Part shown: positions 39,624-64,000 of the stretch, one piece after another
Position numbering within the stretch: the stretch's first letter is position 1
How the letters are laid out: the number at the start of each line of letters is the position of its first letter
Assembly: GCA_964490445.1 (NCBI GenBank)
Contig: CAZBDA010000011.1
Coordinates: 2,252-66,251 of the forward strand
Source: an uncultured Rickettsiales bacterium
GTDB taxonomy: Bacteria; Myxococcota_A; UBA796; UBA9615
Reading direction: 5' to 3'
DNA: 64,000 bases
Program-made: the position numbers and the translations under genes
Notes under the pieces: model-generated
Database searches by the model: none
Told to the model about the DNA's origin: nothing
The model's input: only the letters and a program-made list of their open reading frames with translations

Positions 39624-40619
39624 ATGACTGAAGCAGCACATAACCTCGACCAGGTGCGCAGCGACCTCGAGCGGGTCAGCGGGCACTTCGCAGCACTGCG
39701 CGAAGAGATCGGCCGCGTCGTCGTCGGCCAGAACTACATGGTGGAGCGAATTCTCGTCGCTCTCCTCGCCGATGGGCACATTCTCCTGGAGGGTGTCCCA
39801 GGCTTGGCAAAGACCACCGCCGTACAGGCTGTCGCCGACGCCATCAAGACCACCTTCCAGCGCATTTCGTTCACTCCCGACCTGTTGCCTGCCGACATTC
39901 TCGGCACCCAGATCTACAACCCGAAGTCCGGTGATTTCTCTGTGAAGCAGGGACCTGTCTTCACCAACATCCTGCTTGCGGATGAAATCAACCGGGCGCC
40001 GGCCAAGGTTCAGAGTGCACTGCTCGAAGCAATGCAGGAACGGAAGGTCACGCTCGGCGATCAGCGTTTTGAGCTGCCCAGCCCCTTCCTGGTCCTCGCC
40101 ACGCAGAATCCCATCGAACAGGAAGGCACCTATCCGCTCCCCGAGGCCCAGGTGGATCGCTTCATGCTCAAGATTCGCGTCGAGTATCCGAGCCGCGACG
40201 AAGAGAAGGAAATCCTGCGCCGCTCCATCGACGGCTTCCCGGACCTGCACCCGGTAATCACCCCCGAGCAACTTCTCGAGGCACGCGAGGTAATCGACCG
40301 GATCCGCTTCGATGACAAGTTGGTCGACTACATCCTCGACCTCGTCGCAGCGACCCGCGACCCGAAGTCCGCAGGCCTCGACTCCCTGGAACCGCTGCTG
40401 GAATTCGGGGGCTCGCCGCGCGCAACCATTGCACTGCAGAAAACAGCGCGCGCCCATGCCTTCCTGGCAGGCCGCGCCTACGTCAACTCGGCAGACATCA
40501 AGACGATGGCGCCGGACGTGCTACGACACCGCATCGTGCTGAGCTACGAGGCTGAGGCCGAAGAGGTCGACGCCGACGAGATCGTTGCTCGTATTCTCGC
40601 TACGATCGCCGTGCCCTAG
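39624..40619 (+). CDS. MoxR family AAA+ ATPase
   Basis: LLEGVPGLAKT, RISFTPDLLPADILG, DEINRAPAKVQSALL, ATQNPIEQEGTYPLPEAQVDRF. Confidence 0.96.
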   Translation: MTEAAHNLDQVRSDLERVSGHFAALREEIGRVVVGQNYMVERILVALLADGHILLEGVPGLAKTTAVQAVADAIKTTFQRISFTPDLLPADILGTQIYNPKSGDFSVKQGPVFTNILLADEINRAPAKVQSALLEAMQERKVTLGDQRFELPSPFLVLATQNPIEQEGTYPLPEAQVDRFMLKIRVEYPSRDEEKEILRRSIDGFPDLHPVITPEQLLEAREVIDRIRFDDKLVDYILDLVAATRDPKSAGLDSLEPLLEFGGSPRATIALQKTARAHAFLAGRAYVNSADIKTMAPDVLRHRIVLSYEAEAEEVDADEIVARILATIAVP

Positions 40620-40652
40620 CGGCTCGGCCTCTCCGCCCCGGGCCTACTGACC

Positions 40653-41717
40653 ATGCCGACCGCAATCCTGGGTCCGCTACTCCTGGCTGCCGCCGGTGCC
40701 GCCGCGGCTACGCTGCTGGGTTGGCGCCTCGCGCTCTGGCAACGGCGACGCCTGGATGCCCGTGCGGCCCGTCACGCGGCACACCACGAGAGCGGGCGCT
40801 GGCTTCCCGACGGAGCCATGGGGGGAGCTCGCGGCGGTCTATCGGCAGAAATGCTCGCCCAGGTACGGCGCCTGCACATCACCACCGCCCACCAGGTAAA
40901 CGACCTGATGGCAGGAGAGTACTCCTCGGTCTTCAAAGGACGCGGCATGGAGTTCGAGGAAGTGCGCGAGTACGTGCCCGGCGACGACATCCGTACCATT
41001 GACTGGAACGTCACGGCACGGATGCAGACCCCCTACGTCAAGGAATTCCGCGAGGAGCGGGAGCTGGTCGTAATGATCCTGGTCGACATCTCCCGCTCGG
41101 GCGATTTCGGCACCACCGGCCGGCTCAAGAACGAGTTGGCAGCAGAGCTTGCCGCGACCCTTGCCTTCGCCGCGACCCGCAACAACGACAAGGTCGGTCT
41201 GCTCCTGTTCACCGATCGTGTCGAACGCTTCCTGCCCCCCAAGAAGGGGCGTGGCCACGTCTGGCGGGTAATCCGAGAGATTCTCGACTGCCAGCGCGAA
41301 GGCCAGGGAACTGACCTGGGCGAAGCGCTGTCCTTCCTGAACCGGGTAGTTCGGCGCAAAGCAGTGGTCTTCCTGGTCTCGGACTTCCTGGTCGAAGAGG
41401 ACTTCGAGACCCCTCTGCGAATCGCCAACCGACGCCATGACCTGGTGGTGTTCCGCATCACCGACCCGCGCGAACACAGCCTGCCCGACGTGGGTTTCGT
41501 CGCAGTAGAAGACGCCGAAGATGGCCGCCGAGCCTGGTTGGACACCAGCTCATCGAGAGTACGCAGTTCCTTTGCCGAAGAAGCCGTGCGCAGGTCACAG
41601 CAATTGAAGACGCGATTGAAGCGCCTGAAGGTCGACCTCGTGGAACTCTCGACCAGTGAAGACGTAGCACCACCGCTGACCCGTTACTTCCGGCAGCGGG
41701 AGCGGAGGATGCTGTGA
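40653..41717 (+). CDS. DUF58 domain protein (possible N-terminal TM extension)
   Basis: FKGRGMEFEEVREYVPGDDIRTIDWNVTAR, DISRSG, VSDF. Start could be later (MLAQVRRL). Confidence 0.92.
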   Translation: MPTAILGPLLLAAAGAAAATLLGWRLALWQRRRLDARAARHAAHHESGRWLPDGAMGGARGGLSAEMLAQVRRLHITTAHQVNDLMAGEYSSVFKGRGMEFEEVREYVPGDDIRTIDWNVTARMQTPYVKEFREERELVVMILVDISRSGDFGTTGRLKNELAAELAATLAFAATRNNDKVGLLLFTDRVERFLPPKKGRGHVWRVIREILDCQREGQGTDLGEALSFLNRVVRRKAVVFLVSDFLVEEDFETPLRIANRRHDLVVFRITDPREHSLPDVGFVAVEDAEDGRRAWLDTSSSRVRSSFAEEAVRRSQQLKTRLKRLKVDLVELSTSEDVAPPLTRYFRQRERRML

Positions 41718-42676
41718 TTCGTGCGGCCTCCACGTGGCTGCTGCTGCACTCGCTGCTGGTGGGCTGCGGGCAGGATGCACCTGCCACCGAGAGCGAGCCG
41801 GTGATCGTAACGGCACTGGTCGAGCGGGCCCAGGTCACCCCGGGGCGCCCCTTCGAACTCAGCGTCGAGGTGGACCGCCGCGAGGACGTCGCGTTCGAGG
41901 TCCCCGATGTCGGTGCCGGGATCAAGGGCCTGGTGATCATGGATATGCGCGAGGAAGGCCCCGAAACCGGAGGCGGAAGAGTCCTGACCCGCACCATCTA
42001 CAAGCTCAAGGCACCCCTCAGCGGCACTTACCTGGTGCCCGGCGTAGAGGGAGCCTGGAGCAGCGCTGATGGTGGCCGCGGCACGGCCGGCAGCGGACCC
42101 ATCTTGATCGAAGCGGCCCACGTCGCAGGCGAGGAAGGCTCGATCCATGGCGAGTTACGTGACCTGAAGCCTGCCCTCAAGCCGGCAATCAATACGACGC
42201 CACTGATCGTTGCCGGCGTGCTGGCCGCAATCCTGTTGCTGGCTCTCCTGGTGGCTGTCCGGCTAAGCCGCCGTGAGGCGGTCCAACGGACCAGGCCACC
42301 CCGCGAAGTTGCCCTCGAGGAGCTTCGTACACTGCGCCGCTCGGGCCTGATGACGGCGGCGGATCAGGGGCCATTCGCGTACCAGCTGTCCGCCATCTTG
42401 CGCCGCTACCTCGAAGCTGTGTTCGGCTTCCCAGCCTGGCGAATGACGACCGCTGAGTTGTTGCGGGCGATGCCCCCGGAACTGCTGCAGCGGCGAAAAC
42501 TGGAGCAATCCATTCGCTACGTCCTCGAGGCCAGTGACCTGGTCAAGTTCGCGGGCGAGCGGGTGCCGCAAGAGACGCTGGGCAGTTGGCTCCAAGATGC
42601 CACGACAGTCGTTCACGACACCGCACCGAGCAGTGGAGAAACGCAGGAGACGAGCGCAGCGGAGGCCGGACTATGA
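41714..42676 (+). CDS. Bat-operon membrane lipoprotein (BatD-like/DUF4381-like)
   Basis: Lipobox LVGC; LSAILRRYLE..FG..A..MTT.E; ASDLVKFA. Confidence 0.7.
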   Translation: MIRAASTWLLLHSLLVGCGQDAPATESEPVIVTALVERAQVTPGRPFELSVEVDRREDVAFEVPDVGAGIKGLVIMDMREEGPETGGGRVLTRTIYKLKAPLSGTYLVPGVEGAWSSADGGRGTAGSGPILIEAAHVAGEEGSIHGELRDLKPALKPAINTTPLIVAGVLAAILLLALLVAVRLSRREAVQRTRPPREVALEELRTLRRSGLMTAADQGPFAYQLSAILRRYLEAVFGFPAWRMTTAELLRAMPPELLQRRKLEQSIRYVLEASDLVKFAGERVPQETLGSWLQDATTVVHDTAPSSGETQETSAAEAGL

Positions 42677-43689
42677 GTGGTTGGAGTGCCTGGCGCTTTG
42701 CCTCCCCGCTGTACTTCACGCTGGTCGTGCTGTTGGTGCCGATTGTCTACGCCACGCTGGTGGGGGCGAGCCAGGGCCGGGTTCGGTTTTCGGCGCTGGC
42801 GCTGGTGCGGGCCACCCAAGGTGGGCGACATCGCCTGTTCCGCGTGTTGCCGCTGGCACTTCGCTGCCTGGGCGTGTTCTTCCTGGTGCTGGCTCTGGCC
42901 CGTCCACAGGGGGGCAACGTAACGCGAGAGGTCACCTCGGAGGGCACCGACATCATGCTGGTCGCCGACACATCGGGCTCCATGGAGGCAATGGACTTCA
43001 CCCTCGGCGGCAAACGAGCGACCCGACTCGACGTCAGCAAGAAGGTGATCCGCGACTTCATCTCTGAACGAGCGAACGACCGCATCGGACTGCTGGTGTT
43101 CGGCGAAGAGGCCTTCATTCAGTGCCCCAACACCATCGACTACGGCGTGCTGGTGAACACGCTGGAGGCGGTGAAGCTGAAGATGGCCGGTGACGGAACC
43201 GCGATCGGCACCGCCATTGGCGTCGGAGTCCAGCGCCTAAAAGACCTGCCCGGCCGGGCGAAGATCATGATCCTGTTGACCGATGGCGAGAACACCACGG
43301 GCATCCTGGAGCCACTCCAGGCGGCGCGTGCGGCGGCCACCTACGGCATCAAGATCTACACGATTGGCGTCGGTACCCAAGGTGAGGCGCCCTTCCTGGT
43401 TCCCGGCCTTCTCGGCATGGGCAAGCGCTTCCACTACCAGAAGGTGAGCCTGGACGAAGACAGCCTGAAAGCAATCGCGGAGGCCACCGACGCTCGCTAC
43501 TTCCGAGCGACGTCGACCGAGAAGCTCCAGGAGATCTATGCACTCATCGATCAACTGGAGAAGACCGAGGTCAAGGTCCGCGAGTTCACGGACTACCACG
43601 AGTTGTACAGCCTGGCCCTCTGGCCGGCCCTGCTGCTGCTCTTGCTGGAGCAGCTACTGCGTGCCACCTGGCTGAGGAGTCTGCCGTGA
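42673..43689 (+). CDS. batA: VWA-domain membrane protein BatA
   Basis: N-terminal BatA TM region, LALARPQ, DTSGSM MIDAS, LLTDGENT, KIYTIGVG. Confidence 0.88.
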   Translation: MSGWSAWRFASPLYFTLVVLLVPIVYATLVGASQGRVRFSALALVRATQGGRHRLFRVLPLALRCLGVFFLVLALARPQGGNVTREVTSEGTDIMLVADTSGSMEAMDFTLGGKRATRLDVSKKVIRDFISERANDRIGLLVFGEEAFIQCPNTIDYGVLVNTLEAVKLKMAGDGTAIGTAIGVGVQRLKDLPGRAKIMILLTDGENTTGILEPLQAARAAATYGIKIYTIGVGTQGEAPFLVPGLLGMGKRFHYQKVSLDEDSLKAIAEATDARYFRATSTEKLQEIYALIDQLEKTEVKVREFTDYHELYSLALWPALLLLLLEQLLRATWLRSLP

Positions 43690-45701
43690 GCGGCGACAAC
43701 GCCATACACTTCTCTGACGGGCAGTTGCTCTGGCTGCTCTGGCTGCTGCCGCTGCTGGCCGGACTGTCCCTGGTGGCGGCCCGCAAGCGCAGAGACGCCC
43801 TGGCTCGCTTCGCCGAGGAAGACCTGGTGAAGCATCTTCTGCCGCGACCCTCGCCGATGCGCGCCGCGGTTCGCCCAATCTTGATTGGCGCAGCGTTGCT
43901 CTGCCTCGTGGTCGCCGCAGCCGGGCCGCGCTGGGGATTCCAGTGGGAAGAGGTCCATCGCACGGGAGTCGACGTAGTGGTCGCCCTGGACCTGAGCCGG
44001 TCCATGCTCGCCGAAGACGCCAAGCCAAACCGCCTGGTCGTCGCGAAGCGGGAAATCCGCGATCTCCTCGCTCTGCTGCAGGGCGATAGGATCGGCCTGG
44101 TTGCCTTCGCGGGGACCTCTTTCATTCAGTGTCCCCTGACCCTGGACTACGGCGCCTTCGAGGTGTTCCTCGAACCGATGGACCCGAACTGGGTCCCGGT
44201 CGGCGGCACCGACCTCGCTGCGGCAGTGCGATCGGCAATCGAGGCCTTCCCCACGGACGTTCGCAGCGGCCGCGCCATGCTGCTCATCACCGACGGCGAG
44301 GACCACAGCGGCGAGTTGCAAGATGCCGCTGCAGAGGCAAAAGCCGAAGGAGTCCACATCTTCGTGGTCGGCATCGGTGAGCCCCAGGGCGCACCGGTAC
44401 CTGACGGACGCGGCGGCTTCATCAAGGAAAAGGGCAGCGTCGTTCTGACCCGGCTCGATGAGGGTGCACTCAAAGAGCTCGCGCTGACTACCGGCGGGAC
44501 CTACGTGCGCAGCGCTGCCGGCGACCTCGACCTGCGCAAGATCTACCTCGACGACATCAAGGGCACGCTCGAGGCCCGAGAACTCAGCAGTTCGAGGCAG
44601 CGACGCTGGGAGGAGCGCTACCAGTTCGCCCTGATGCCCGCGCTCCTGCTGCTGGTGCTCGAGAGCCTGCTGGGTCCACCCCGTCGTCGAGAACGGCGAC
44701 GACGGGACCGCGGCCACGGCGCCGGACGAGCCGCAGTGCTGCTTGTTGGCTCACTGTTGTACATCCTCGTGACACCTGGTTCGGCAATGGCAGGCTGGTT
44801 CGGCGACGATGACGAGCCGGTCCGCGCCGGCTACCAGGCCTTCCAGGACGCGAACTACCAGGACGCCCTCGACCAATGGACCACAGCCCAGGTGGCCGAC
44901 CCGAACAACCTGGAGATCGACTACAACATCGGCCAGGCCCACTATCGGCTCGGCAACTTTCCCGAAGCCGAGAAGGCATTTCAGGCAGCGGCAGCCAGCA
45001 ACGTCACCGAGTTCAGTGCGGACGCATCCTTCAACGCGGGCAACGCTGCCTTCCAGCAGGGCCGTTACCCCGAAGCCATCAGCCACTTCGAGCAGTGCCT
45101 GGAGTTACGGCCCGACGACGAAGATGCCGCCGCCAATCGCGACCTCGCCCAAAAGCGCTACGAAGAGCTGCTGGAGCAGGCCAGCAAAGAACAGCAGGAA
45201 CGCGAGCAGCAAGAGCAGGAACAGGAGCAGGAGCAACAGCAGGACGACGACGCGGCCGCAGAGCAGGAACAGCAACCCGGCCAGGAGGCCGAGCCGGGCC
45301 AGGACGGACAACAGCAGAACAAAAAGGAGCAGCAACAGGGTCAGGCCGGCCAGCAGGAAGCCCAGGAGCCGCAAGAGCAGGAGCCGGGCGACGGCGAGGA
45401 AGATGCCAATGCAGAGCAGCCAGAGGAGCCGAGCACCGGAGGCCAGGCCGCTGCAGCCGACATTGACCGCAGCTCGGAGCCCGACAGCGAAGCCGAGCAG
45501 ACAGAGGGGGCGATTGCCGAACAGACCGAGGAGCAGAACGAGCAGGACAGCGGCGAGCAGTCCATAATCGAGGGCGCTCTGTCGCCCGAGCAGGCCGAGG
45601 CCCTGCTGGATCTTCTCGAGGCCGACAAGCGGTCCAGGCGCAAGGAACGAACCAAGCGGGAAGGCCAGCGCGGCCGGCGCGCAGCAAGCAAGGACTGGTA
45701 A
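43686..45701 (+). CDS. BatB-BatC fusion (VWA + TPR + Q/E-rich linker)
   Basis: GPRWG, DLSRSM, ITDGEDH; then YNIGQAHY, FNAGNAAF TPRs; Q/E low-complexity tract; ends SKDW. Confidence 0.85.
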   Translation: MSGDNAIHFSDGQLLWLLWLLPLLAGLSLVAARKRRDALARFAEEDLVKHLLPRPSPMRAAVRPILIGAALLCLVVAAAGPRWGFQWEEVHRTGVDVVVALDLSRSMLAEDAKPNRLVVAKREIRDLLALLQGDRIGLVAFAGTSFIQCPLTLDYGAFEVFLEPMDPNWVPVGGTDLAAAVRSAIEAFPTDVRSGRAMLLITDGEDHSGELQDAAAEAKAEGVHIFVVGIGEPQGAPVPDGRGGFIKEKGSVVLTRLDEGALKELALTTGGTYVRSAAGDLDLRKIYLDDIKGTLEARELSSSRQRRWEERYQFALMPALLLLVLESLLGPPRRRERRRRDRGHGAGRAAVLLVGSLLYILVTPGSAMAGWFGDDDEPVRAGYQAFQDANYQDALDQWTTAQVADPNNLEIDYNIGQAHYRLGNFPEAEKAFQAAAASNVTEFSADASFNAGNAAFQQGRYPEAISHFEQCLELRPDDEDAAANRDLAQKRYEELLEQASKEQQEREQQEQEQEQEQQQDDDAAAEQEQQPGQEAEPGQDGQQQNKKEQQQGQAGQQEAQEPQEQEPGDGEEDANAEQPEEPSTGGQAAAADIDRSSEPDSEAEQTEGAIAEQTEEQNEQDSGEQSIIEGALSPEQAEALLDLLEADKRSRRKERTKREGQRGRRAASKDW

Positions 45702-47479
45702 TGAGAGGACCACTCAGCAGCACTGCCATTGCATCGCTGTGTGCCGTTCTTGTGGTCCTTTGCGCTGCCGGCACGGCACGCGCCGCCTCCCTGAGTATGA
45801 CTGCCAACTCGACCTCGCTGAGCGTCGGCAGCAGCACACAGATCCACATCGAAGTCCAAGGCGGTCGAATCGACACCGCGCCGAGGCTGGTGCAAAGCGA
45901 TGGCTTCGACGTGGAGATGGCGGGACGAAGCTCGAGCTTCACGATGAGCCAGGGCCGGGTCAGCCAGCAAACCACCTACACCTTCTCGATCCTCGCACGC
46001 AGCCCCGGAACCCACACGCTGGGGCCCGCCGAGGCGGTGGTCGATGGCAAGCGGGTGCTCAGTCAACCATTGCAGATCGAGGTGCGGGAAGCAGGGACTC
46101 GTCCCGGCGGAGGTTCCGCTTCGGGAAGCGCCGACAGCACCGACAGCGCCGACAGCGCCGTCAGTGGCGGCGACGTACGTTGGTTCGCACAAGCAGTGGT
46201 CACAGACGACCGTCCTTTTGTAGGCGAGAGCATCGCCTACTCCCTGGACATTGGAAACGCCGTGCCGGTCCGCGGTACCAGCTGGGACCGGCCCGACTGG
46301 GGCACGTTGACCCCCGCACCGGGGGTCGAGCCGGAGCAATCCGAACAACTCGACATCATCGATGGTCGACGCTACGAGGTCACCACCTTGTTGATGCCGT
46401 TGTTTGCCCTCGAAGCAGGGGCGACGACGATTCAGCCGTCGGTACTCGAGGTGACCGTCCCCCAGCGCTCCAGGTCACTGTTCGACCTGGGAGCCGGACG
46501 TAAGTTCCAGTTCGCATCGAACGCCCTGGAGTTGACGGTTCGCCCCTTGCCAGAACTCGGCAAACCGGACGACTTCAGCGGCGCCGTAGGACGCTTCCAG
46601 TTGTCGGGGAGCATCGACCGGAACCGCTTGAATGCGGGCGAAACAGCCACGCTGGTGTTGAAGCTGAACGGACGCGGGGCTCTGCACAAGCCGAAGATCA
46701 ACCTGGAATTGCCTGATTCGGTGCGCCGCTACAGCGAGCAGCCCCAGCGCAACACGAAGCTGGTCTCCCGTGCGCTGCGCACCGATGTCACCTTCCGCGA
46801 GGCCCTCGTGCCGCTGCAACCCGGCACAATCACAATCCCGCCGGTCAGCTTCTCGTACTTCGACCCTTCCGAGGAGGTGTACCGCACGGTCAGGACCAAG
46901 CCCATCACTCTGCATGTCGGCGGAACCGCCGTGGTGGATCCAGCAGTCGTCGCGCGTTCCTCGCAACTGGGAAGGGCCAAGGAGCAAGTCGAAATCCTCA
47001 ACGACCTGGTCAGCCTGCACAGCGAGGAAGACGTGCGCGGCGACCAGCGGCTGACAATTTCTTCGGCGGCCATCCTGCTCGCACTGCTTCTGCCGTTGTT
47101 CGGTTTCTCCTCGGTCGCAACAGTAATGACACGACGGCGACGCAGTGGAACATCCGCGGGTCAGGCCCGCGCCCGGGCGAAGGCAGCCAGGGAGGCCCAC
47201 AAGGTGCTACAGCGGGCAGAAAAGAACGACGACCTGGAGGCCGCTGAGTCGGCCTGGCGCTGCTACCTCACCGCACGGCTGAATCGATCCGGAGATGCCC
47301 TCTCCCCAGGGGACGCGCAGGCTGTGCTGGACGAAGCTGATTGCCCTGGCGAGCTCGCTGAACAAGCAGCAGGGCTGCTCGAGAGTCTCGAATCGGTGCG
47401 TTACGGCGGCGGCTCCGCCAGCTCCCTGCCAGCCGACCTGGCCCGCTGGTCCCGCGTCGCGGAAAAGGAGTGGAAGTGA
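45701..47479 (+). CDS. batD: BatD family protein
   Basis: Signal peptide, repeated Ig-like units, FSGAVGRFQL, FSYFDP..EVYRT, C-terminal TM. TAATG overlap. Confidence 0.88.
   Translation: MRGPLSSTAIASLCAVLVVLCAAGTARAASLSMTANSTSLSVGSSTQIHIEVQGGRIDTAPRLVQSDGFDVEMAGRSSSFTMSQGRVSQQTTYTFSILARSPGTHTLGPAEAVVDGKRVLSQPLQIEVREAGTRPGGGSASGSADSTDSADSAVSGGDVRWFAQAVVTDDRPFVGESIAYSLDIGNAVPVRGTSWDRPDWGTLTPAPGVEPEQSEQLDIIDGRRYEVTTLLMPLFALEAGATTIQPSVLEVTVPQRSRSLFDLGAGRKFQFASNALELTVRPLPELGKPDDFSGAVGRFQLSGSIDRNRLNAGETATLVLKLNGRGALHKPKINLELPDSVRRYSEQPQRNTKLVSRALRTDVTFREALVPLQPGTITIPPVSFSYFDPSEEVYRTVRTKPITLHVGGTAVVDPAVVARSSQLGRAKEQVEILNDLVSLHSEEDVRGDQRLTISSAAILLALLLPLFGFSSVATVMTRRRRSGTSAGQARARAKAAREAHKVLQRAEKNDDLEAAESAWRCYLTARLNRSGDALSPGDAQAVLDEADCPGELAEQAAGLLESLESVRYGGGSASSLPADLARWSRVAEKEWK
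46131..46166 (+). repeat. In-frame 9-bp tandem repeat in the BatD linker
   Basis: CCGACAGCA CCGACAGCG CCGACAGCG CCGTCAGTG, encoding ADSTDSADSAVS. Confidence 0.75.
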
Positions 47480-52868: not shown

Positions 52869-53630
52869 TCAAAGACAAGAACGCGATGACAGGCAGCCAC
52901 CGCTCCTGGCAGGGCTGGCCTCCTCCTCGTCCAGAAACAATCCCACGGCCACGGGAACGGCGACGCCACCAGGTTCGTCCACCGCGGTCCCGGAGCGCCG
53001 CAGATAGAGCTGGGTCGAAGCTCCGCCGTCCAGGTTCAGAGCACTGGTGCAGCCTTCAGCGACGAAGAACGTGGCCAGGTCGTCGGCCCAAATGGCATTG
53101 CCCGCCACCAGCACCTTGACCCGACCATCGGCCAATACGCACAAAGCCGTGCGGCGAGCGATCTGCCGCTTCAGGCTGAGAGCCGCCCCATCGACCACCA
53201 GCCGCGGCCCGACCTGGAAGGCCTGGCGAACCTCGGGACGCGATTTCCAGTCCGAGGTATGGACAATGGACGGCCCCTTCGCATCCAGCGCGAACACGCC
53301 CCAGTCCACCGACCGCAGCGGCACCTGCTCGATCCCATCGACGATGAGCAGGCCCATGGGCGAGCCATCCAGGTCGAAGAACGGACCGTTGAAGACCGCA
53401 ACGGCACCGCTACGCTCGGCAAACTGGCGAGCGGTCAGAACGCTCTTGCCGAGGTCCTTCGCCTGCAGGAGCTTCAACTCGACACGCCTGAGATCCACGC
53501 TGAGCAGGTGCACTCCAACGCCTGCAGGCGTCTCGACGAAGCCGTAAGAAAGGGCTTCGGCAGGATCGCTGACGGCACCTCCAGGAGCGATGCACAGGCA
53601 CCAGGCCAGAGCCACCAGTAGGACGAACAC
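52869..53630 (-). CDS. Phosphodiester glycosidase (NAGPA) family protein
   Basis: FNGPFF, QVGPRLV..G, RRTAL, ALNLDGGASTQL; signal peptide. Start uncertain. Confidence 0.82.
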   Translation of the reverse strand: MFVLLVALAWCLCIAPGGAVSDPAEALSYGFVETPAGVGVHLLSVDLRRVELKLLQAKDLGKSVLTARQFAERSGAVAVFNGPFFDLDGSPMGLLIVDGIEQVPLRSVDWGVFALDAKGPSIVHTSDWKSRPEVRQAFQVGPRLVVDGAALSLKRQIARRTALCVLADGRVKVLVAGNAIWADDLATFFVAEGCTSALNLDGGASTQLYLRRSGTAVDEPGGVAVPVAVGLFLDEEEASPARSGGCLSSRSCL

Positions 53631-55696: not shown

Positions 55697-55978
55697 CTAG
55701 CGGCGGATCTTGCCGCCTGACGAGGTCGCCGGCGGACGGGCGAGGTCGATGATCAGGTTGCGTTCGCCGAGCACGACACCCGCCAGGGCGTCACGAACCT
55801 GTACAGCCGTCGCCTTATCGACGATCTCCACGAAACCAAAGCCCTTCGACAGGCCGGTTGACCGGTCCATGATCACACGGACGTCGACCGGTTCGACACC
55901 GGTAGCAGTGAAGACGGAACGCAGGTCCTCGTCGGAACAGGAGTAGGGAAGGTTCCCCACAAACAGCTTGGCGGTCAT
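55697..55978 (-). CDS. RRM-domain RNA-binding protein
   Basis: RNP2 LFVGNLPY, RNP1 KGFGFVEI. Confidence 0.93.
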   Translation of the reverse strand: MTAKLFVGNLPYSCSDEDLRSVFTATGVEPVDVRVIMDRSTGLSKGFGFVEIVDKATAVQVRDALAGVVLGERNLIIDLARPPATSSGGKIRR

Positions 55979-56032
55979 AACGGTGCTTTCGAAAGGCTGG
56001 GCAGCAGAGACTGGTGCCGACAGCCGGGTACC

Positions 56033-56251
56033 TTAGCGCTGACGGTAGGTGATGCGACCCCGGGTAAGGTCGTAGGGCGAAACCTCGACAATCACACGGT
56101 CGCCGCGCAGCACGCGGATGCGGAAACGACGCATCTTGCCACCAAGGTGCGCCAAGATTTCATGTTCCTTGTCAGTCACCACCTTGAAGGTTCCCCCGGG
56201 GAACACCTCCACGACAGTGCCTTCCATCTCGATGCCGGACTCAGAAGCCAT
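56033..56251 (-). CDS. infA: Translation initiation factor IF-1
   Basis: [21 protein letters not shown]...[25 protein letters not shown]. Confidence 0.97.
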
Positions 56252-56291
56252 TCGACAGTCTTGATCTTCCTGACCGTTTCGGTCGCCTACC

Positions 56292-56326
56292 AAAAAAGAG
56301 CCCCCGGCCGAATGACCGGGGGTCAT
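56292..56326 (-). terminator. Terminator-like hairpin with U-tract inside the infA 5' leader
   Basis: CCCCCGG-8 nt-CCGGGGG then CTCTTTTTT on the minus strand; overlaps an alternative hairpin ATGACC-CCC-GGTCAT. Confidence 0.7.
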
Positions 56327-56341
56327 GTTGTGTCGCGCGAG

Positions 56342-56370
56342 ATGTTAGTGATGGGCTGCGATGGCGTCAA
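56342..56370 (-). promoter_or_regulatory. Putative sigma70 promoter of infA-RRM
   Basis: Minus strand TTGACG-N17-TAACAT. Confidence 0.7.
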
Positions 56371-56506
56371 GATCTGTCACCCTCGACAGGTACAAGAGTA
56401 GGGTCCTCGACACCCGTGCCTACGCTACTGCCCGCCCAAATGCACTCCGCCACGAAGGCAATCCGATTTTCCTGCTGGCAGAGCTGTCGTTCGAGAGCGC
56501 CTCAGG

Positions 56507-57556
56507 CTAGTCGACCAACTCGTTGTCGAGTTCCTCGGTTTCGGCAGACCTCGATACGGGAGCCACCTGCGCGGCGGTAATGCTCGCCTCGGAACGCATC
56601 TCCTCGGTGATCTTGATCCGGGGGTCGGTGGCCGCGGCGGCCGGATCATCTGCCACTATCGTCCGGTTTCGCCCCTCGATCTTGGCCCTGTACATCGCCT
56701 GGTCTGCACGTTCGATCCAGTCGCTTGCGGATTCTCCGCCTTTGCGCAAAGCAAGGCCGACAGAGATCGTGACACGCAGATCGGCAGGACCTTCCTTGAA
56801 CTGGATGCCTTGGACCCGCTCGCGGATCCGCTCGGCGACCTCGACACCCCACTCCAGGGCGAGGGAGGGCATGAGGAGGAGGATCTCCTCGCCGCCGTAC
56901 CGAATTGCGTAGTCGGTGCGGCGGAGATTGTCGTGGACCACCCCCGATACCCGCTGCAGGACGTAGTCCCCGACCGGATGTCCATGCTCGTCATTGACGC
57001 GCTTGAAGTGGTCGAGGTCGAGAAGCAGGCAGCAGGCCTGCTGCTGCCGGCGGTCCAACTCCTCGATTAGAGCGTCCAGGCGCTGCTCGAGGAAGGCCCG
57101 GGTCAACAGCCCGGTGAGATGGTCACGGGCTCCAGCCTGCAACTTGTTGGATACGTCACGGTGGTAACGGACCTCGGCACTACTCATCCACTCGAAGCGG
57201 AGCAGGACATCACCAGCCCGGATCTTGTCACCGCTGACCAGCCACATCTCGGAGGTCATCGCGCCGTTGACCATCATGCCGTTGGTGCTGTCGTTGTCGC
57301 GCGCCTGAATCGCTGGACGCCCGGCCTTGCGCACCACTTCAAAGGTGACGTGGTGGCGCGACACGGACGGTGCAGGAATCTGCACGTCTGCTTCCTCGCC
57401 TCGTCCGAGAGAATGGGCGCCGGGACCTTCGTCCAAAGCAAAGAAGGCGCCCACCTCCGGCCCTTCCAGGACCGTCAGTGTGGGCGCCAGCTTTTCGTCA
57501 GGCGAACGTCTTCCCAGTTCCGAGACGACAATCGTGCGCGGGTCGTCGCTGCCCAT
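56507..57556 (-). CDS. FHA-GGDEF diguanylate cyclase
   Basis: FHA: LGR, SVSRHH, STNG; DHLTGL, DLDHFKRVND, I-site RRTD, RYGGEE, ADQAMYRAK..GRNR. Confidence 0.93.
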   Translation of the reverse strand: MGSDDPRTIVVSELGRRSPDEKLAPTLTVLEGPEVGAFFALDEGPGAHSLGRGEEADVQIPAPSVSRHHVTFEVVRKAGRPAIQARDNDSTNGMMVNGAMTSEMWLVSGDKIRAGDVLLRFEWMSSAEVRYHRDVSNKLQAGARDHLTGLLTRAFLEQRLDALIEELDRRQQQACCLLLDLDHFKRVNDEHGHPVGDYVLQRVSGVVHDNLRRTDYAIRYGGEEILLLMPSLALEWGVEVAERIRERVQGIQFKEGPADLRVTISVGLALRKGGESASDWIERADQAMYRAKIEGRNRTIVADDPAAAATDPRIKITEEMRSEASITAAQVAPVSRSAETEELDNELVD

Positions 57557-59348: not shown

Positions 59349-59425
59349 GCGGCTGTGGCTCAGCTGGATAGAGCACCAGACTACGAATCTGGGGGTCGCA
59401 GGTTCGAATCCTGCCAGCCGCGCCA
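59349..59425 (+). tRNA. tRNA-Arg (ACG)
   Basis: Acceptor GCGGCTG/CAGCCGC, D arm GCTC/GAGC, anticodon arm CCAGA-CTACGAA-TCTGG, T arm GCAGG-TTCGAAT-CCTGC, encoded CCA; 77 nt. Confidence 0.98.
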
Positions 59426-59507: not shown

Positions 59508-61019
59508 GTGCGTATCGTCGTCTGCAACCGCCTGACTGAATACCTCGGCGTCGAGATCCTGTCGGCGATCCTCAAGGAGCAGGGGCACAGCGTCCAACTC
59601 GTGTTCGAGCCGGACCTGCTAAACGCCACGGTCTTGCGCTCTCTGCCGACCTCAGTCGCCACTAAGTGGGACTCGGCCACACGCGCTGCGCGGCGGGTTC
59701 TCAGCCTCGAGCCAGACCTGGTGCTGTTCCCGTCCGAGATCAACTCGTTTCGCTGGTGCACGCGAGTGGGCGCGGCAGTCAAGGCCAAGCGTCCCGAAGT
59801 TCACCTGCTGCACGGCGGCTTTCACGTCACGAGCAGCCCCGAGGAGTGCATTGGCGAAGACGGCGTCGACATGCTTTGTGTCGGTGAGGGCGACCTGGCG
59901 ATCCCGGAACTCGTCTCGGCGCTCCAGGACGGTCGCGACATCCATTCGATCGCCAACCTCTGGATCAAGGAGGCCAACGGAACCATTCACCGCAACGCTC
60001 CCCGTGCGCTGGTCCAGGACCTGGATAGCCTGCCGTGGCCCGACAAAGAGCTGTACTACGAGGAGATGCCAGGCCTCTCCCGGGAGTACATGTGTGTCAC
60101 TTCGCGCGGCTGCCACTGGGCCTGCTCGTTCTGCTTCTACACGACACTGTATGACCTGTACGGACGCGAAGGCTATCTGAGAGCACGCTCACCGCAGAAC
60201 GTAGTCGGCGAGCTGGCAGCGGCGAAGCAGCGCTGGGATCTACGCTACGTGGTGTTCCACGATGACATCTTCCCCACCTCGATCCACTGGCTGCGCGAGT
60301 TTGCGCCGCTGTACAGCGAACAGGTGGGGCTACCGTTTTCCTGCATCACCCATCCCCAACTGGTCCTCGAGGAGACCGCCGAACTGCTCGCCGGGATGGG
60401 CTGCCGTTACGTCATCATGGGTGCCCAGACGGTCAACAAGAGCTCACGAAAGCCCGAGGTGATCAACCGCACCGAGACCAGCGACGACATCCGATTGGCA
60501 GTGACCCGCCTGAAGCAGCGAGGGATTTTTGTACTCCTGGATCACATCTTCGGGATCCCGGGCGAGAGCCTCGAGGACCAGGAGCAGGCGCTGCGCTTCT
60601 ACGTCGACGTCGGCGCCGACGTGATCAAGCCATTCTTTATGACCTACTTCCCAGGCACCGATCTCACCCGCCGCGCCGAGCAGGACCGCTCGATCGAACG
60701 CAGCGAACTGGAGCGCAACGAGGAAGGCCACTGGGACCACTTCATGTTCGAGGGCGCGCTGTCGGGAGATGACTTTTCCGCCTACAACCTCGCCTACGCG
60801 CTGTTTCCGATCCTCGGGCGAAGGGGCCGACAAGCCATGCTTCGCTACCAACTGCACCACCGGCTGGAGCCGCTGGCTCGTCTGCCGGGACTGGGAAACG
60901 TCATCCTACTACCCCGCCTGTTGAGGGGCCTGGGAGGACAGCAGGACATCCGACCGAAGCTATACCTGCACTACCTGAAGACAATCACTGGATACCGGCT
61001 GCGCAAAGCCCTGCGTTGA
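59508..61019 (+). CDS. B12-binding radical SAM protein (class B type) 1
   Basis: EYLG..LSA.LK..GH, GGFH, VGEGD, SRGCHWACSFC, FHDDIF, DHIFGIPGE. Confidence 0.9.
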   Translation: MRIVVCNRLTEYLGVEILSAILKEQGHSVQLVFEPDLLNATVLRSLPTSVATKWDSATRAARRVLSLEPDLVLFPSEINSFRWCTRVGAAVKAKRPEVHLLHGGFHVTSSPEECIGEDGVDMLCVGEGDLAIPELVSALQDGRDIHSIANLWIKEANGTIHRNAPRALVQDLDSLPWPDKELYYEEMPGLSREYMCVTSRGCHWACSFCFYTTLYDLYGREGYLRARSPQNVVGELAAAKQRWDLRYVVFHDDIFPTSIHWLREFAPLYSEQVGLPFSCITHPQLVLEETAELLAGMGCRYVIMGAQTVNKSSRKPEVINRTETSDDIRLAVTRLKQRGIFVLLDHIFGIPGESLEDQEQALRFYVDVGADVIKPFFMTYFPGTDLTRRAEQDRSIERSELERNEEGHWDHFMFEGALSGDDFSAYNLAYALFPILGRRGRQAMLRYQLHHRLEPLARLPGLGNVILLPRLLRGLGGQQDIRPKLYLHYLKTITGYRLRKALR

Positions 61020-62191
61020 GTGCTACCTTGAACCTCGCTGAGTCAGGCCACTGCGGTCCTAGAGCGGAGTCTTCGATGCTAGCCAGCAGGCTGAACACCG
61101 CGCGTCAACTCGCTGGTCTTGCCAAGAGCCACCTTGGGAGACTGGTGAAGGAACGGCCGGCGCTCCTGCCCAAACTGGCCGCCAACTACGCTCGCATGAC
61201 GCTGGGACAGGGGGACGTGCTCCGCACCGCCTCGATCGCCATCACTGGTTCCTGCAACGCCACCTGCGGCCACTGCTCGGCCGACCACATGATGAACGAG
61301 ACCACCCGGCGCAGCGACATGCTGACCCTCGAGGAGTACGACAAGGCCATCGACGGCTTTCTCAGCGCCGGGGCCATCTCGGTAAACATCACCGGCGGTG
61401 AGCCCCTGGTCAGCCCGATGATCTACGACGTCATCCGCCTGGTGCCCCCGCACCGTGGCGTAGTCAACATACAGACCAACGGCCTGCTGTTGAGCGACGA
61501 GGTCGCCCGCAAGCTGAGCGATGCAGGCACCTGGATCGTCATGATCTCGCTGCACAGCCATCGTCCTCACGAACACGATGCACTGCTCGAGGTGGATGGC
61601 GCCTTCGACAAGGTGATGGCGGCCATCGAGAACTGTCACCGCTACAAGCTGCCAGTGATTCTCAATTGCACTCTGACGCACCAGAAGGTAGCGGACGGCA
61701 CGCTCTGGGAAATGGTCGACCTCGCTCTGGAAAAGCAGGTCACGGTGAACTTCGTACAGCCCTGCACCACTGGCAAGTGGGAAGAGCAGCGGGAAGTTGC
61801 CCTTACCGAAGACGACTACGCTGAATTCGACAAGGCGATGAAGCTCCCCTGGGTGGTCTGGGAAGGCAAGACCAACTACAAGGTCGATGCCTGCAGGCCA
61901 GGCATCGAGCGCCTCTACATGAGTGCGAGCGGGGATATCATTCCCTGCGCCTTCATCCACCTGAACTTCGGCAACGTCAAGAAGGAGACTGTCTCCACCA
62001 TCTGGGACCGGGTGCGCAGCTTCGAGCGCTTCCGCTCCGCACCGAAACGCTGCATGGCAAGCAATGACGAGCAATTTTACGACGAGTACGTCACCGAGAT
62101 CCGCGACTACGACGGCGCACTACTGCCCATCGAAGAGCACTCGTCCTACGCAGCCGAGCACCCCGAAGAGGCTGCCGCGATCATCCGCTGA
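61016..62191 (+). CDS. Radical SAM protein with SPASM/twitch-like C-terminal domain
   Basis: CNATCGHC, ITGGEPL, QTNG; C-terminal CRPG...GDIIPC...C. TTGA overlap with the upstream stop. Confidence 0.88.
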   Translation: MSATLNLAESGHCGPRAESSMLASRLNTARQLAGLAKSHLGRLVKERPALLPKLAANYARMTLGQGDVLRTASIAITGSCNATCGHCSADHMMNETTRRSDMLTLEEYDKAIDGFLSAGAISVNITGGEPLVSPMIYDVIRLVPPHRGVVNIQTNGLLLSDEVARKLSDAGTWIVMISLHSHRPHEHDALLEVDGAFDKVMAAIENCHRYKLPVILNCTLTHQKVADGTLWEMVDLALEKQVTVNFVQPCTTGKWEEQREVALTEDDYAEFDKAMKLPWVVWEGKTNYKVDACRPGIERLYMSASGDIIPCAFIHLNFGNVKKETVSTIWDRVRSFERFRSAPKRCMASNDEQFYDEYVTEIRDYDGALLPIEEHSSYAAEHPEEAAAIIR

Positions 62192-62199
62192 GGCCCGCT

Positions 62200-63927
62200 A
62201 TGAAGCTCGTCTTCTGCAATCAACTCACCGAAATGCTGGGGGTGCAGTTGCTGTCTGCGCAGCTGCAACTGCATGGCCATGAAACAGGGTTGGTCTTCGA
62301 GCCCAACCTGTTCGCCACCGGCGGGATCCGAGACCCACGTCTCATCGACCTGCTCAGCAACGATGAATTGGTCATCGAGGAGATCCTGGCGGCGGAGCCG
62401 GACATGGTGGGTTTTCCCATCGAGATCAACGGCTACCACTGGGCTCTGAAGATTGCCGGCGGCGTGAAAGCGAGACGCCCTGACCTGCCCATCATCATGG
62501 GTGGCATCCACGCGACACTCTGCCCGGATGTCGTCATCGAGCGGCCCGAGGTGGATTTTGTCGCGGTAGGCGAGGCGGAATTCTCGCTGGTCGAGTTGTG
62601 CGACATCCTGTCGGGGCGCCGTGAGGGCAGTCCACACACAATCCAAGGCATCTGGAGCCGCGATCGTGATGGCACCCAACACCGCAACGGCGAAGGGCGG
62701 GAACACCCCGAACTCGACGAGTTCCCCTTCTATGACAAGGCGCTGTACTACGACAAGTTGCCCGGCCTCGCCTCCGAGTACATGACCACCATCAGCCGCG
62801 GCTGTCCCTACAACTGCAGCTTCTGCTTCTACAACGCCGTGCACGAACTCACCGGCAACCGCAACGTGCGGGTGCGCAGTCCACGCCACGTGGCCGACGA
62901 ACTCATCGCCGCCAAGCAGCGATACCCGCAAATGGAGACCGTGCTGTTCCACGACGACATCTTCCCGGTGACTACCCGGTGGCTCGAGGAGTTCACGCCC
63001 ATCTACCTCGAGAAGATCGGCCTGCCGTTCAGTTGCATCACCCACCCGCTACTGGTCTCCGAACGCATGGCGGAGCTGCTTGCAGAAGCCGGCTGCAGGT
63101 CGGTAATCATGGGCGTGCAGACCGGCAGCGAGACCATTCGCCGCGAGATGATGGAGCGCAACGAGACGAACGCCGAGATCATGGCAGCCATCAAGCGATT
63201 ACGCGCCCGCGGCATCTTCGTGACCTGCGACCACATCCTGGGAACCCCCGGCGAAACCCACGAAGACCAGGACCAGGCGCTGCTGTTTTACGCCGAGGCC
63301 GGCCCCAACGTGGTGAAGCCCCTGCCATTGACCTACCTGCCACATACGGCGATGACCCGGCGCGCCATCGAAGACGGAGTCATCACGGAACAGGACGAAG
63401 ACGATGCAGCGCACGGCTTCCTCAACTCACTGATGTTCAAGGGCAGCGGCTACGACACCCAGTGGCGTGCCTACTTCATGATGTACGGTCTTCGACCTGT
63501 CCTTCCGAAGGGCCTGCAGCAGTGGCTGGTAGGCCACGGACTGCACAAGCAGTTGGCCCGAGTGCCAAGTGGCTACGGCGTCGACCCAGCCGTGTTCTTT
63601 TTGCCCAGGCTGCTGAGCGGCATTGCGTTCGGCTACGACATACGCGCCAAGTACCTGGCCTGGCGCTTCATCGAGATGTTCCAGTACTCAATGCACCGGA
63701 AGATGCGCTCGAAACGCCTGGGACTGCGTGCTCGGGTCGAAGAACCGACTCCCGATTCCACTCCTTCGCTGGTATCGCGGATGACCTCTCGGCTTCTGCG
63801 CAACAACAAGCGCGCAGAACGCACCGAGACCGTGCTGCCCGGCGCCGGCCTCGTGCCCCGCTTCGCGCCGGGGATGGGCCGGCCCTGGGGAGCAAAGACT
63901 CCGGCCGAACCCGTCCCGGGTCCCTGA
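62200..63927 (+). CDS. B12-binding radical SAM protein (class B type) 2
   Basis: EMLG..LSA.L..HGH, GGIHAT, VGEAE, SRGCPYNCSFC, FHDDIF, DHILGTPGE. Confidence 0.9.
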   Translation: MKLVFCNQLTEMLGVQLLSAQLQLHGHETGLVFEPNLFATGGIRDPRLIDLLSNDELVIEEILAAEPDMVGFPIEINGYHWALKIAGGVKARRPDLPIIMGGIHATLCPDVVIERPEVDFVAVGEAEFSLVELCDILSGRREGSPHTIQGIWSRDRDGTQHRNGEGREHPELDEFPFYDKALYYDKLPGLASEYMTTISRGCPYNCSFCFYNAVHELTGNRNVRVRSPRHVADELIAAKQRYPQMETVLFHDDIFPVTTRWLEEFTPIYLEKIGLPFSCITHPLLVSERMAELLAEAGCRSVIMGVQTGSETIRREMMERNETNAEIMAAIKRLRARGIFVTCDHILGTPGETHEDQDQALLFYAEAGPNVVKPLPLTYLPHTAMTRRAIEDGVITEQDEDDAAHGFLNSLMFKGSGYDTQWRAYFMMYGLRPVLPKGLQQWLVGHGLHKQLARVPSGYGVDPAVFFLPRLLSGIAFGYDIRAKYLAWRFIEMFQYSMHRKMRSKRLGLRARVEEPTPDSTPSLVSRMTSRLLRNNKRAERTETVLPGAGLVPRFAPGMGRPWGAKTPAEPVPGP

Positions 63928-63945
63928 GCCCTCGGAGGGCGCGAA

Positions 63946-64000
63946 GTGGCCATTGCACAAGCACGGTCTCCGGCAGACGCGGTTCGCTCGCGGGGGCCCG
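63946..64000 (+). CDS. Start of the next ORF of the radical SAM cluster (3'-truncated)
   Basis: GGAGG SD at 63934-63938, GTG at 63946, frame open to the window end. Confidence 0.5.
   Translation, partial: MAIAQARSPADAVRSRGP

Follow-up and report, generated by a model that had tools for sequence, protein, structure and literature searches.

A conserved four-gene cassette of radical SAM enzymes and a methyltransferase at a fixed chromosomal site in uncultured marine bacteria

Four genes form the cassette

We analyzed a stretch of DNA of 64,000 nucleotides (nt) from an uncultured bacterium (GenBank assembly GCA_964490445.1, contig CAZBDA010000011.1, positions 2,252 to 66,251), here called the window, which encodes at its right end a cassette of radical S-adenosylmethionine (SAM) enzymes. 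The four genes of the cassette, named A, B, C, and D, were taken from a list of the open reading frames (ORFs) of the 64-kb window and their translations. A and C encode paralogous class B radical SAM enzymes, B encodes a twitch-type radical SAM enzyme, and D encodes a class I SAM-dependent methyltransferase (Table 1). The same region was found on a metagenome contig, locus L001, in which each coordinate equals the window coordinate minus 52199 and which reaches 10 kb past the window end. An identical protein C was present on 12 metagenome contigs, the longest of which (235 kb) came from a marine sample.

A preliminary description of the locus had recognized three consecutive radical SAM genes with intact CxxxCxxC motifs beside a tRNA-Arg gene, and the ORF list, ARAGORN, and Pfam agreed with this description. 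The fourth ORF that it had noted at position 63946 is also real. When the downstream sequence was retrieved on L001, this ORF, extending about 880 nt past the window end, was completed as methyltransferase gene D. The unit is thus not the three-gene cassette first proposed but four genes with D included.

The genes had operon-like spacing with Shine-Dalgarno motifs, and the gaps were 56 nt between A and B, 8 nt between B and C, and 18 nt between C and D. The B reading frame is open back to a TTG codon at position 61016 (391 amino acids from there), and the 4-nt overlap between A and B that had been reported requires this codon. The TTG had neither a Shine-Dalgarno motif nor ortholog support, while the ATG at position 61076 was backed by ortholog N termini, a GGAG motif, and the gene callers. 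The overlap was therefore replaced by the 56-nt gap, while the 8-nt gap between B and C stood as reported. For D, the gene callers differed. The longer form adds 41 N-terminal residues, which are conserved in orthologs and complete a CxxC...CxxC zinc ribbon, and its GTG codon is preceded by GGAGG; we therefore placed the start of D 18 nt after C. A scan of the locus for promoters and terminators found no signal exceeding shuffled expectation.

Domains and cysteine motifs of the cassette proteins

The CxxxCxxC motifs of the three radical SAM genes are CHWACSFC, CNATCGHC, and CPYNCSFC. Protein A matched the Pfam families PF02310 (B12-binding; 46.1 bits, with a cutoff of 32.1 bits) and PF04055 (Radical_SAM; 75.8 bits), and protein C matched the same families with 57.2 and 94.1 bits, respectively. 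In both proteins, a B12-binding Rossmann domain is followed by the CxxxCxxC core, which is the architecture of class B radical SAM enzymes. A and C were 43% identical across 510 amino acids (E value 5e-139) and had in common the N-terminal motif MxxVxCNxLTE as well as LVFEP and FHDDIFP, so the outer genes are paralogs, as their near-identical N termini had suggested in the preliminary description. Compared with A, C carries an additional C-terminal tail of about 70 amino acids.

Protein B matched Radical_SAM with 74 bits and SPASM (PF13186) with 29.2 bits, the cutoff of the latter being 21.5 bits. When B was aligned with 18 homologs, six Cys residues were invariant: C60, C64, and C67 of the core, C273 and C291 in the arrangement C273-x12-G286-x4-C291, and C326. 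The second Cys set of a full SPASM domain, CX2CX5CX3C, was absent from this alignment of 19 sequences. With the core and the CX9-15GX4C motif, B belongs to the SPASM/twitch radical SAM enzymes, and the three invariant C-terminal Cys without CX2CX5CX3C make it twitch-type, without a full SPASM domain; the three C-terminal Cys noted earlier were thus upheld. The AlphaFold model of B had a pLDDT of 84, and its best Foldseek matches were SkfB, MoaA, PqqE, SuiB, and BlsE, with TM-scores of 0.5 to 0.67. Protein D, 310 amino acids in full length, matched Methyltransf_23 (E value 3.6e-26).

Conservation of the cassette in the marine lineage

We found about 30 orthologs of C at 64 to 82% identity and about 26 orthologs of B at 61 to 90% identity, after which the identity of B homologs dropped to 28 to 34%. 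Orthologs of A were present in 11 species at 66 to 75% identity. The A-type proteins, about 40 in number, were 41 to 45% identical to C, and further homologs dropped to about 30%. Among 1.84 billion library representatives, the B orthologs made up approximately one 50%-identity cluster, and the B family comprised 169 proteins at an E value of 1e-30 or lower, all with 25 to 37% identity, among which were several fusion proteins of 560 to 770 amino acids.

The cassette occupied an equivalent chromosomal site in 11 related marine species (GTDB species representatives). The order at this site was a DsbA-like gene, a 134-amino-acid ORF, tRNA-Arg, A, B, C, D, a 192-amino-acid ORF, in some cases a 160-amino-acid ORF, infC, an 83-amino-acid ORF, and an M18 peptidase gene, and tRNA-Arg lay directly upstream of A in 10 of the 13 related loci scanned. 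The fixed site across species indicated that the cassette is a vertically inherited core-genome locus and that tRNA-Arg is not an integration scar. A tRNA-linked island was ruled out, since tRNA-Arg and both flanks were kept across species and the GC content at the cassette was not deviant. Taken together, the Pfam domains, the invariant cluster Cys, and orthologs at 61 to 90% identity in at least 11 species indicate that the cassette architecture is intact and under selection.

The GenBank labels of the 11 species disagree and include Deltaproteobacteria, Proteobacteria, and uncultured Rickettsiales. The last label looks implausible given a GC content of 62 to 66% and the many Ser/Thr kinases.

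B and C were adjacent in every species. D directly followed C in the complete loci except L012, in which a 3-kb insert with a PLD-like gene parted the two. A was the loosest member: in 8 of the 11 species, 1 to 4.3 kb of unrelated DNA lay between A and B, and in L017 A was inverted. In three species, the A-B insert encoded a lipoprotein of the GH114 glycoside hydrolase family; in L014 and L016, it encoded a Ser/Thr kinase of 1,163 amino acids that has an AAA_16 domain (Table 1). As to whether the trio of radical SAM genes is conserved together, a point raised in the preliminary description, the genes were together in 11 species, but A is loosely attached.

The flanking housekeeping genes were conserved to the same degree as the cassette, so synteny within the lineage alone does not prove functional linkage. 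This equal conservation, the separation and inversion of A, and the insert between C and D in L012 would fit an alternative in which proximity is merely inherited and A, and perhaps D, belongs to a pathway other than that of B and C, so that no single cassette exists. The absolute adjacency of B and C speaks against this alternative, as does the recurrence of adjacent B12-binding and twitch radical SAM genes, and of adjacent methyltransferase and twitch genes, in unrelated lineages with different flanks, described below. We consider it very unlikely that the genes are together by inheritance alone.

Duplication of A and C and occurrence of the module in distant lineages

In a neighbor-joining tree, the A proteins and the C proteins formed sister clades, each containing all species. 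This topology indicated a duplication in the marine lineage before the species diverged. The joint A and C clade was sister to a single clade of B12-binding radical SAM enzymes that partner B-like genes elsewhere, while the other B12-binding radical SAM enzymes of those distant loci branched outside. Because A and C are sister paralogs next to the partner clade, the substrate of A most likely remained a related one.

The distant relatives were the seven next-closest B homologs (28 to 34% identity), which were looked up, and 63 loci from a metagenome scan. A radical SAM partner was adjacent in all six independent loci of the next-closest B homologs, and in five of these a full-length A/C homolog adjoined the B homolog (28 to 32% identity, 210 to 250 bits). 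In the metagenome scan, 40 loci had genes flanking the B-like gene on both sides; an A/C-like gene was adjacent in 13, a D-like gene in 10, and either of them in 20. A triad of D-like, B-like, and A/C-like genes was found in five distant loci (L049, L059, L069, L075, and L088). By these comparisons, the ancestral module contained a single B12-binding radical SAM enzyme and one twitch radical SAM enzyme, often with a D-like methyltransferase, and the pairing of the two radical SAM enzymes is older than this marine lineage.

Genomic context of the distant relatives

Sugar or glycoconjugate genes were present in all seven contexts of the next-closest B homologs. The families included NAD epimerase/dehydratase, DegT aminotransferase, glycosyltransferase family 2 (GT2), PMT_2/GT-C, flippase-like proteins, fusions of GT2 with methyltransferases, and TylF/CmcI methyltransferases.

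We then scanned with Pfam the 135 nearest neighbors from 54 distant loci that were not radical SAM genes. Class I methyltransferases headed the list of partners of B-like enzymes (about 38 of the 135), followed by GT2 (15), PMT_2/GT-C (7), NAD (nucleoside diphosphate-sugar) epimerase/dehydratase (6), DegT aminotransferase (5), flippase-like LPG_synthase_TM (4), and GT1 (3). No family typical of ribosomally synthesized and posttranslationally modified peptides (RiPPs), of acyl carrier protein and fatty acid synthase (ACP/FAS), of isoprenoids, or of ether lipids was among the 25 commonest neighbor families of the 54 loci.

At least one sugar-type gene lay within five genes of the B-like gene in 27 of the 34 distant loci that had five or more genes. 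These genes were concentrated close to the B-like gene: 39 of 210 genes at three or fewer positions were of sugar type versus 3 of 99 at five or more positions (Fisher P, 7e-5). The methyltransferases followed the same pattern, with 32 of 210 versus 0 of 99 (Fisher P, 3e-6). In addition, some B-like enzymes and some D-like methyltransferases were fused to GT2 domains (Table 1).

Polytopic proteins with at least seven transmembrane-like segments were encoded within five genes of the B-like gene in 17 distant loci. Proteins of about 600 to 800 amino acids with 8 to 13 such segments recurred beside the distant B-like genes, most of them without a recorded Pfam match (examples in Table 1). These neighbors may be unrecognized GT-C-type transferases or polymerases.

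Matches to characterized families and alternative substrates

A, B, and C were compared with the NCBIfam equivalog models, and every score was far below the cutoff. The best curated match of A and C was HpnJ (TIGR03471), with 118 and 126 bits versus a cutoff of 577.6 bits. Their scores against BchE, HpnR, PhpK, BzaD, the ladderane-type model TIGR04072, ApyD, and rSAM_ocin_1 were 30 to 125 bits versus cutoffs of 282 to 750 bits, and the AprD4 model gave 34 bits versus a cutoff of 500 bits. For B, the best matches were AhbD (111.8 versus 500 bits) and MoaA (106.5 versus 284 bits); HpnH (55 versus 225 bits) and SkfB (56 versus 300 bits) were lower still, and the NirJ and PqqE equivalogs likewise stayed below their cutoffs.

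Sequence matches in the PDB, from single-sequence and profile searches, reached at most 51 bits and are informative at the level of enzyme class only. A and C matched TokK, AprD4, and QCMT, the last identified as PDB entry 9CCB from the literature (PMC12931638). B matched SkfB and BlsE, and D matched MitM and UbiG. With PADLOC, the matches were generic: pVip with 54.6 bits (radical SAM core), PDC-M51A with 33 to 34 bits, and mad2 with 48 bits (methyltransferase fold). No specific system model was hit, and a defense function was rejected.

No source that we compared gave a functional name for close homologs, and no description of the module was found in the full-text literature searched. The 2026 reviews on radical SAM enzymes that modify lipids or depend on B12 treat Tes, Mss, Gms, GrsA/B, Gmm, Cds, HpnH/J/P/R, Jaw5, ladderanes, TokK, OxsB, TsrM, QCMT, and Mmp10. 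The earlier view of the cassette as undescribed was supported by the family scores, the PDB matches, and the missing names. The enzyme kinds are known, and the cassette adds a new and narrow subfamily to them; it is not a categorically new system.

These matches suggest, as one alternative, that the cassette makes or tailors a soluble small molecule without any glycosyltransferase; examples would be an osmolyte, a cofactor, a cyclitol, or a sugar resembling those of aminoglycosides. A and C would then C-methylate, B would oxidize, and D would O- or N-methylate the compound. The nearest solved relatives of D, MitM (37.6 bits) and UbiG, agree with such a product, as do the PDB match of A and C to AprD4, an enzyme of aminoglycoside synthesis (E value 8e-10, profile search), the match of B to BlsE, and the lack of a glycosyltransferase or sugar-nucleotide gene beside the cassette in its own lineage. 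However, all four of these matches are weak, no scaffold-forming enzyme was encoded in the roughly 10 kb to each side, and the relatives lie in clusters of the glycosyltransferase, GT-C, and flippase type and not in small-molecule biosynthetic clusters. A soluble small-molecule product seems unlikely.

Alternatively, the enzymes could methylate, cyclize, or cross-link the hydrocarbon portion of a membrane lipid, as with GrsA/GrsB and Tes, HpnP/HpnR, or the ladderane-type B12-binding radical SAM enzymes. The top curated matches of A and C include, beside HpnJ, the "lipid biosynthesis B12-binding/radical SAM protein" TIGR04072 (77 to 93 bits), and two paralogous B12-binding enzymes with one SPASM-type enzyme mirror the combination of GrsA/GrsB and Tes (PMC13459092). 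Flippase-like and patatin genes occur beside some relatives, and the window encodes 3-hydroxy-3-methylglutaryl coenzyme A (HMG-CoA) reductase, Psd, Lgt, and Lnt, though 25 to 40 kb away. Against a lipid substrate are the family scores, all far below the cutoffs, and the lack of ACP, FAS, isoprenoid, and ether-lipid families around the relatives. Furthermore, B has 371 amino acids and a single twitch site, aligned poorly to the glycerol dialkyl glycerol tetraether (GDGT) enzyme GDGT-MAS, and had no PDB sequence match to it. Modification of a lipid hydrocarbon is, in our judgment, rather improbable. For B itself, identity with Tes/GDGT-MAS was ruled out by size, Cys pattern, and fold (PDB 7tol; TM-scores, 0.49/0.38; root mean square deviation, 16.7).

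The best sequence and fold match of B was the peptide maturase SkfB (50.7 bits; Foldseek E value 3e-17), and A and C matched the RiPP methyltransferase models ApyD and rSAM_ocin_1 with 78 to 125 bits. These matches point to a third alternative, in which the four enzymes mature a peptide or protein: B would cross-link or epimerize the peptide, A and C would C-methylate it as PoyB/PoyC do, and D would N- or O-methylate it. The target could be encoded elsewhere or be one of the neighboring secreted proteins, and a secreted 192-amino-acid protein and a Cys-rich 160-amino-acid lipoprotein are indeed conserved downstream on the opposite strand. Nevertheless, several cassette-bearing species lack the lipoprotein, B has no RiPP recognition element (RRE) or PqqD domain, and no RiPP-type family recurs around the relatives. 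The preliminary description had seen no precursor peptide or scaffold synthase, and this held also for the 10 kb past the window end: no short precursor-like ORF, scaffold synthase, transporter, or protease, leader peptidases included, was found in the roughly 10 kb to each side. Since the locus is also a fixed core-genome site and not a variable biosynthetic island, we find a peptide maturase set hard to credit.

Proposed function

We tentatively propose, with doubt still on the heavier side, that the cassette modifies a sugar within a glycoconjugate of the cell envelope, which would be a polysaccharide or other glycan unit or else the head group of a glycolipid. Both the substrate class and the individual reactions are suggested by analogy with the chemistry of the enzyme families. 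An envelope sugar is favored because the relatives of the module lie in glycan or glycoconjugate clusters. The GH114 insert between A and B in three species was counted toward this proposal, as was the fact that HpnJ, the best curated match of A and C, acts on lipid-linked glucosamine (PMC13459092). The preliminary description had named a lipid, a glycan, or a small molecule as the substrate. The relatives narrow this choice to a glycan or glycoconjugate, but the lineage of the window itself has no such neighbors.

In the proposed route, B would cleave SAM and take a hydrogen from a C-H bond of the sugar, while its three-Cys auxiliary cluster would bind the substrate or accept an electron. The sugar might be oxidized, epimerized, or decarboxylated, in the manner of BtrN, DesII, or BlsE. 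A and C would carry out cobalamin-dependent methylation of unactivated carbons (GenK/Fom3 type) or a ring rearrangement (HpnJ/OxsB type), and D would transfer an O- or N-methyl group. Because the lineage has two copies of what was ancestrally one enzyme, A and C may act on two different positions or one after the other. The earlier suggestion of two regio-distinct modifications is compatible with this view but stays conjectural, as A and C are a lineage-specific duplication of one ancestral partner and A is the loosest member.

Several observations weigh against an envelope sugar as the substrate. A sugar-type reference set had no match among 240 ORFs around the cassette in the lineage of the window (0/240). 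The flanks are housekeeping (the DsbA-like gene, tRNA-Arg, infC, and the M18 peptidase), and housekeeping genes also make up the rest of the window. The glycan context was observed in relatives with 24 to 34% identity, and at this identity the function may have shifted between the relatives and the lineage of the window. No NCBIfam cutoff was approached, and D resembles the small-molecule methyltransferases MitM and UbiG. Cobalamin binding has no diagnostic sequence motif, and AprD4-like proteins have the domain without cobalamin. The fold of B is generic for twitch and SPASM enzymes, with a peptide maturase as the top match, and the model of C was poor (pLDDT, 60; pTM, 0.44; shallow alignment). 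As for RNA, three metatranscriptomes were empty, and the sole match was one contig of 151 nt from an oligo-dT run.

A broader proposal is that the module of methyltransferase, twitch radical SAM enzyme, and B12-binding radical SAM enzyme is a widespread, undescribed route in uncultured bacteria to C-methyl or ring-contracted, carbocyclic sugars of envelope glycans or glycolipids. We regard this broader proposal as unlikely. To our knowledge, cobalamin-dependent radical sugar chemistry is so far confined to antibiotics and to hopanoid and calditol head groups, and no description of such chemistry for general envelope glycans was found in the literature searched.

If the proposal holds, a major pelagic group would have a cobalamin-dependent envelope modification encoded in its core genome, with the B12 enzyme duplicated, and the envelope structure of this uncultured group would be tied to the supply of vitamin B12. 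The assignment, if right, would also define a radical SAM subfamily, with cobalamin-type and twitch members, that tailors bacterial surface sugars. The four genes are a compact target for heterologous expression, and about 170 sequence clusters are available for finding a tractable relative.

Other features around the cassette

Table 1. Positions of the cassette, of other features near it, and of selected genes in related loci. Positions are those of the window unless a locus is named.
Feature	Position	Strand	Remarks
tRNA-Arg (anticodon ACG)	59349..59425	+	ARAGORN; 82 nt upstream of A
Gene A	59508..61019	+	503 amino acids, GTG start; class B radical SAM, B12-binding Rossmann domain and CxxxCxxC core
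Gene B	61076..62191	+	371 amino acids from ATG 61076; twitch-type radical SAM
Gene C	62200..63927	+	575 amino acids; class B radical SAM, paralog of A
Gene D (start)	63946..64000	+	GTG start; class I SAM-dependent methyltransferase, cut by window end
Gene D (complete)	L001 11747..12679		
Secreted 192-amino-acid protein	L001 12702..13280	-	Converges on D; kept in every relative with coverage
Cys-rich 160-amino-acid lipoprotein	L001 13388..13870	-	Lipobox LLVSC; missing in several cassette-bearing species
QueE-like radical SAM protein	L001 17587..18231		214 amino acids; beyond window end
Putative glycosyltransferase	L001 20087..21652		8 transmembrane segments; weak match to LA_3751/LA_3752 family and PMT_2; 8 kb downstream
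NAGPA-like phosphodiester glycosidase	52869..53630	-	PF09992
RRM_1 protein, infA, FHA and GGDEF protein	55697..57556	-	RRM_1 protein of 93 amino acids
MoxR-DUF58-DUF4381-BatA-VWA/TPR-BatD operon	39624..47479	+	Complete; "aerotolerance" type
HMG-CoA reductase	19894..21180	-	Pfam E value 2.5e-107
GH114 lipoprotein in A-B insert	L012 5869..6717; L013 5896..6738; L015 4426..5274	-	
Ser/Thr kinase with AAA_16 in A-B insert	L014 3323..6814; L016 3328..6825	+	
B-like enzyme P0156 fused to GT2	L026 4641..6566		
D-like methyltransferase fused to GT2	L024 2545..3900; L026 1879..3186		
Polytopic proteins near B-like genes	L019 1474..3273; L020 923..2716; L024 7158..9038; L057 4558..6465; L059 3698..5548; L062 6097..7956		

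The secreted protein and the lipoprotein are conserved hypothetical envelope proteins, and both of their genes converge on D. Beyond them, L001 encodes infC, the M18 aminopeptidase, and another methyltransferase, and farther on the QueE-like protein and the putative glycosyltransferase. Within 10 kb upstream of the cassette, the NAGPA-like glycosidase was the sole glycan-related gene. A eukaryote-type RRM_1 RNA-binding protein adjoins infA, followed by a protein with FHA and GGDEF domains. The Bat operon is followed by a 694-amino-acid TSP3-repeat protein and then by a Ser/Thr kinase on the opposite strand. HMG-CoA reductase, an enzyme of the mevalonate pathway that is uncommon in bacteria, shares 30 kb with Lnt, BioB, an acyl-CoA carboxylase subunit, and an acyl-CoA synthetase.

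Comparison with known systems

Four known systems resemble the cassette in part. Proteusin-type RiPP tailoring uses the class B C-methyltransferases PoyB/PoyC, the radical SAM epimerase PoyD, and the N-methyltransferase PoyE. The four enzyme classes of such an operon have counterparts in the cassette, with A and C matching RiPP methyltransferase models and B matching SkfB. The cassette differs in having no precursor, RRE, protease, or transporter, and the neighborhoods of its relatives are of the glycan type.

Aminoglycoside tailoring combines the class B C-methyltransferases GenK/GenD1, the twitch dehydrogenase BtrN, AprD4, and class I N-methyltransferases. This combination of enzyme classes acts on sugars, and AprD4 and BlsE are among the PDB matches. 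However, the similarity is weak, and the cassette has no gene for 2-deoxystreptamine or another scaffold. It is a core-genome locus of a marine lineage, and its relatives lie in clusters of the envelope-glycan type and not in antibiotic clusters.

GrsA/GrsB, represented by Saci_1585 and Saci_0240, and Tes are the archaeal GDGT ring synthases and the tetraether synthase (PMC13459092, PMC11868695). Like them, the cassette pairs two paralogous B12-binding radical SAM enzymes with one radical SAM enzyme of the SPASM family, a likeness drawn from published descriptions of the Grs proteins. The lack of lipid genes in the neighborhoods of the relatives speaks indirectly against a Grs-type role of A and C. 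Tes has about 500 amino acids, three iron-sulfur clusters, and a lipid-binding fold, while B has 371 amino acids and one auxiliary site.

HpnJ, which functions in hopanoid cyclitol-ether formation, and the calditol synthase Cds are radical SAM enzymes that remodel the sugar head group of a membrane lipid, and both act on a lipid-linked sugar (PMC13459092). No shc or hpn gene was found in the roughly 10 kb to each side of the cassette, so shc and hpnH/I/K are not nearby, and the cassette has two paralogs, a twitch enzyme, and a methyltransferase instead. Points of likeness are the class B architecture of A and C and their best curated match, HpnJ. Some relatives of the module adjoin GT2, HpnL-like flippase-like proteins, and HpnA-like epimerases, the HpnA-like neighbor scoring 118, far below its cutoff of 368.

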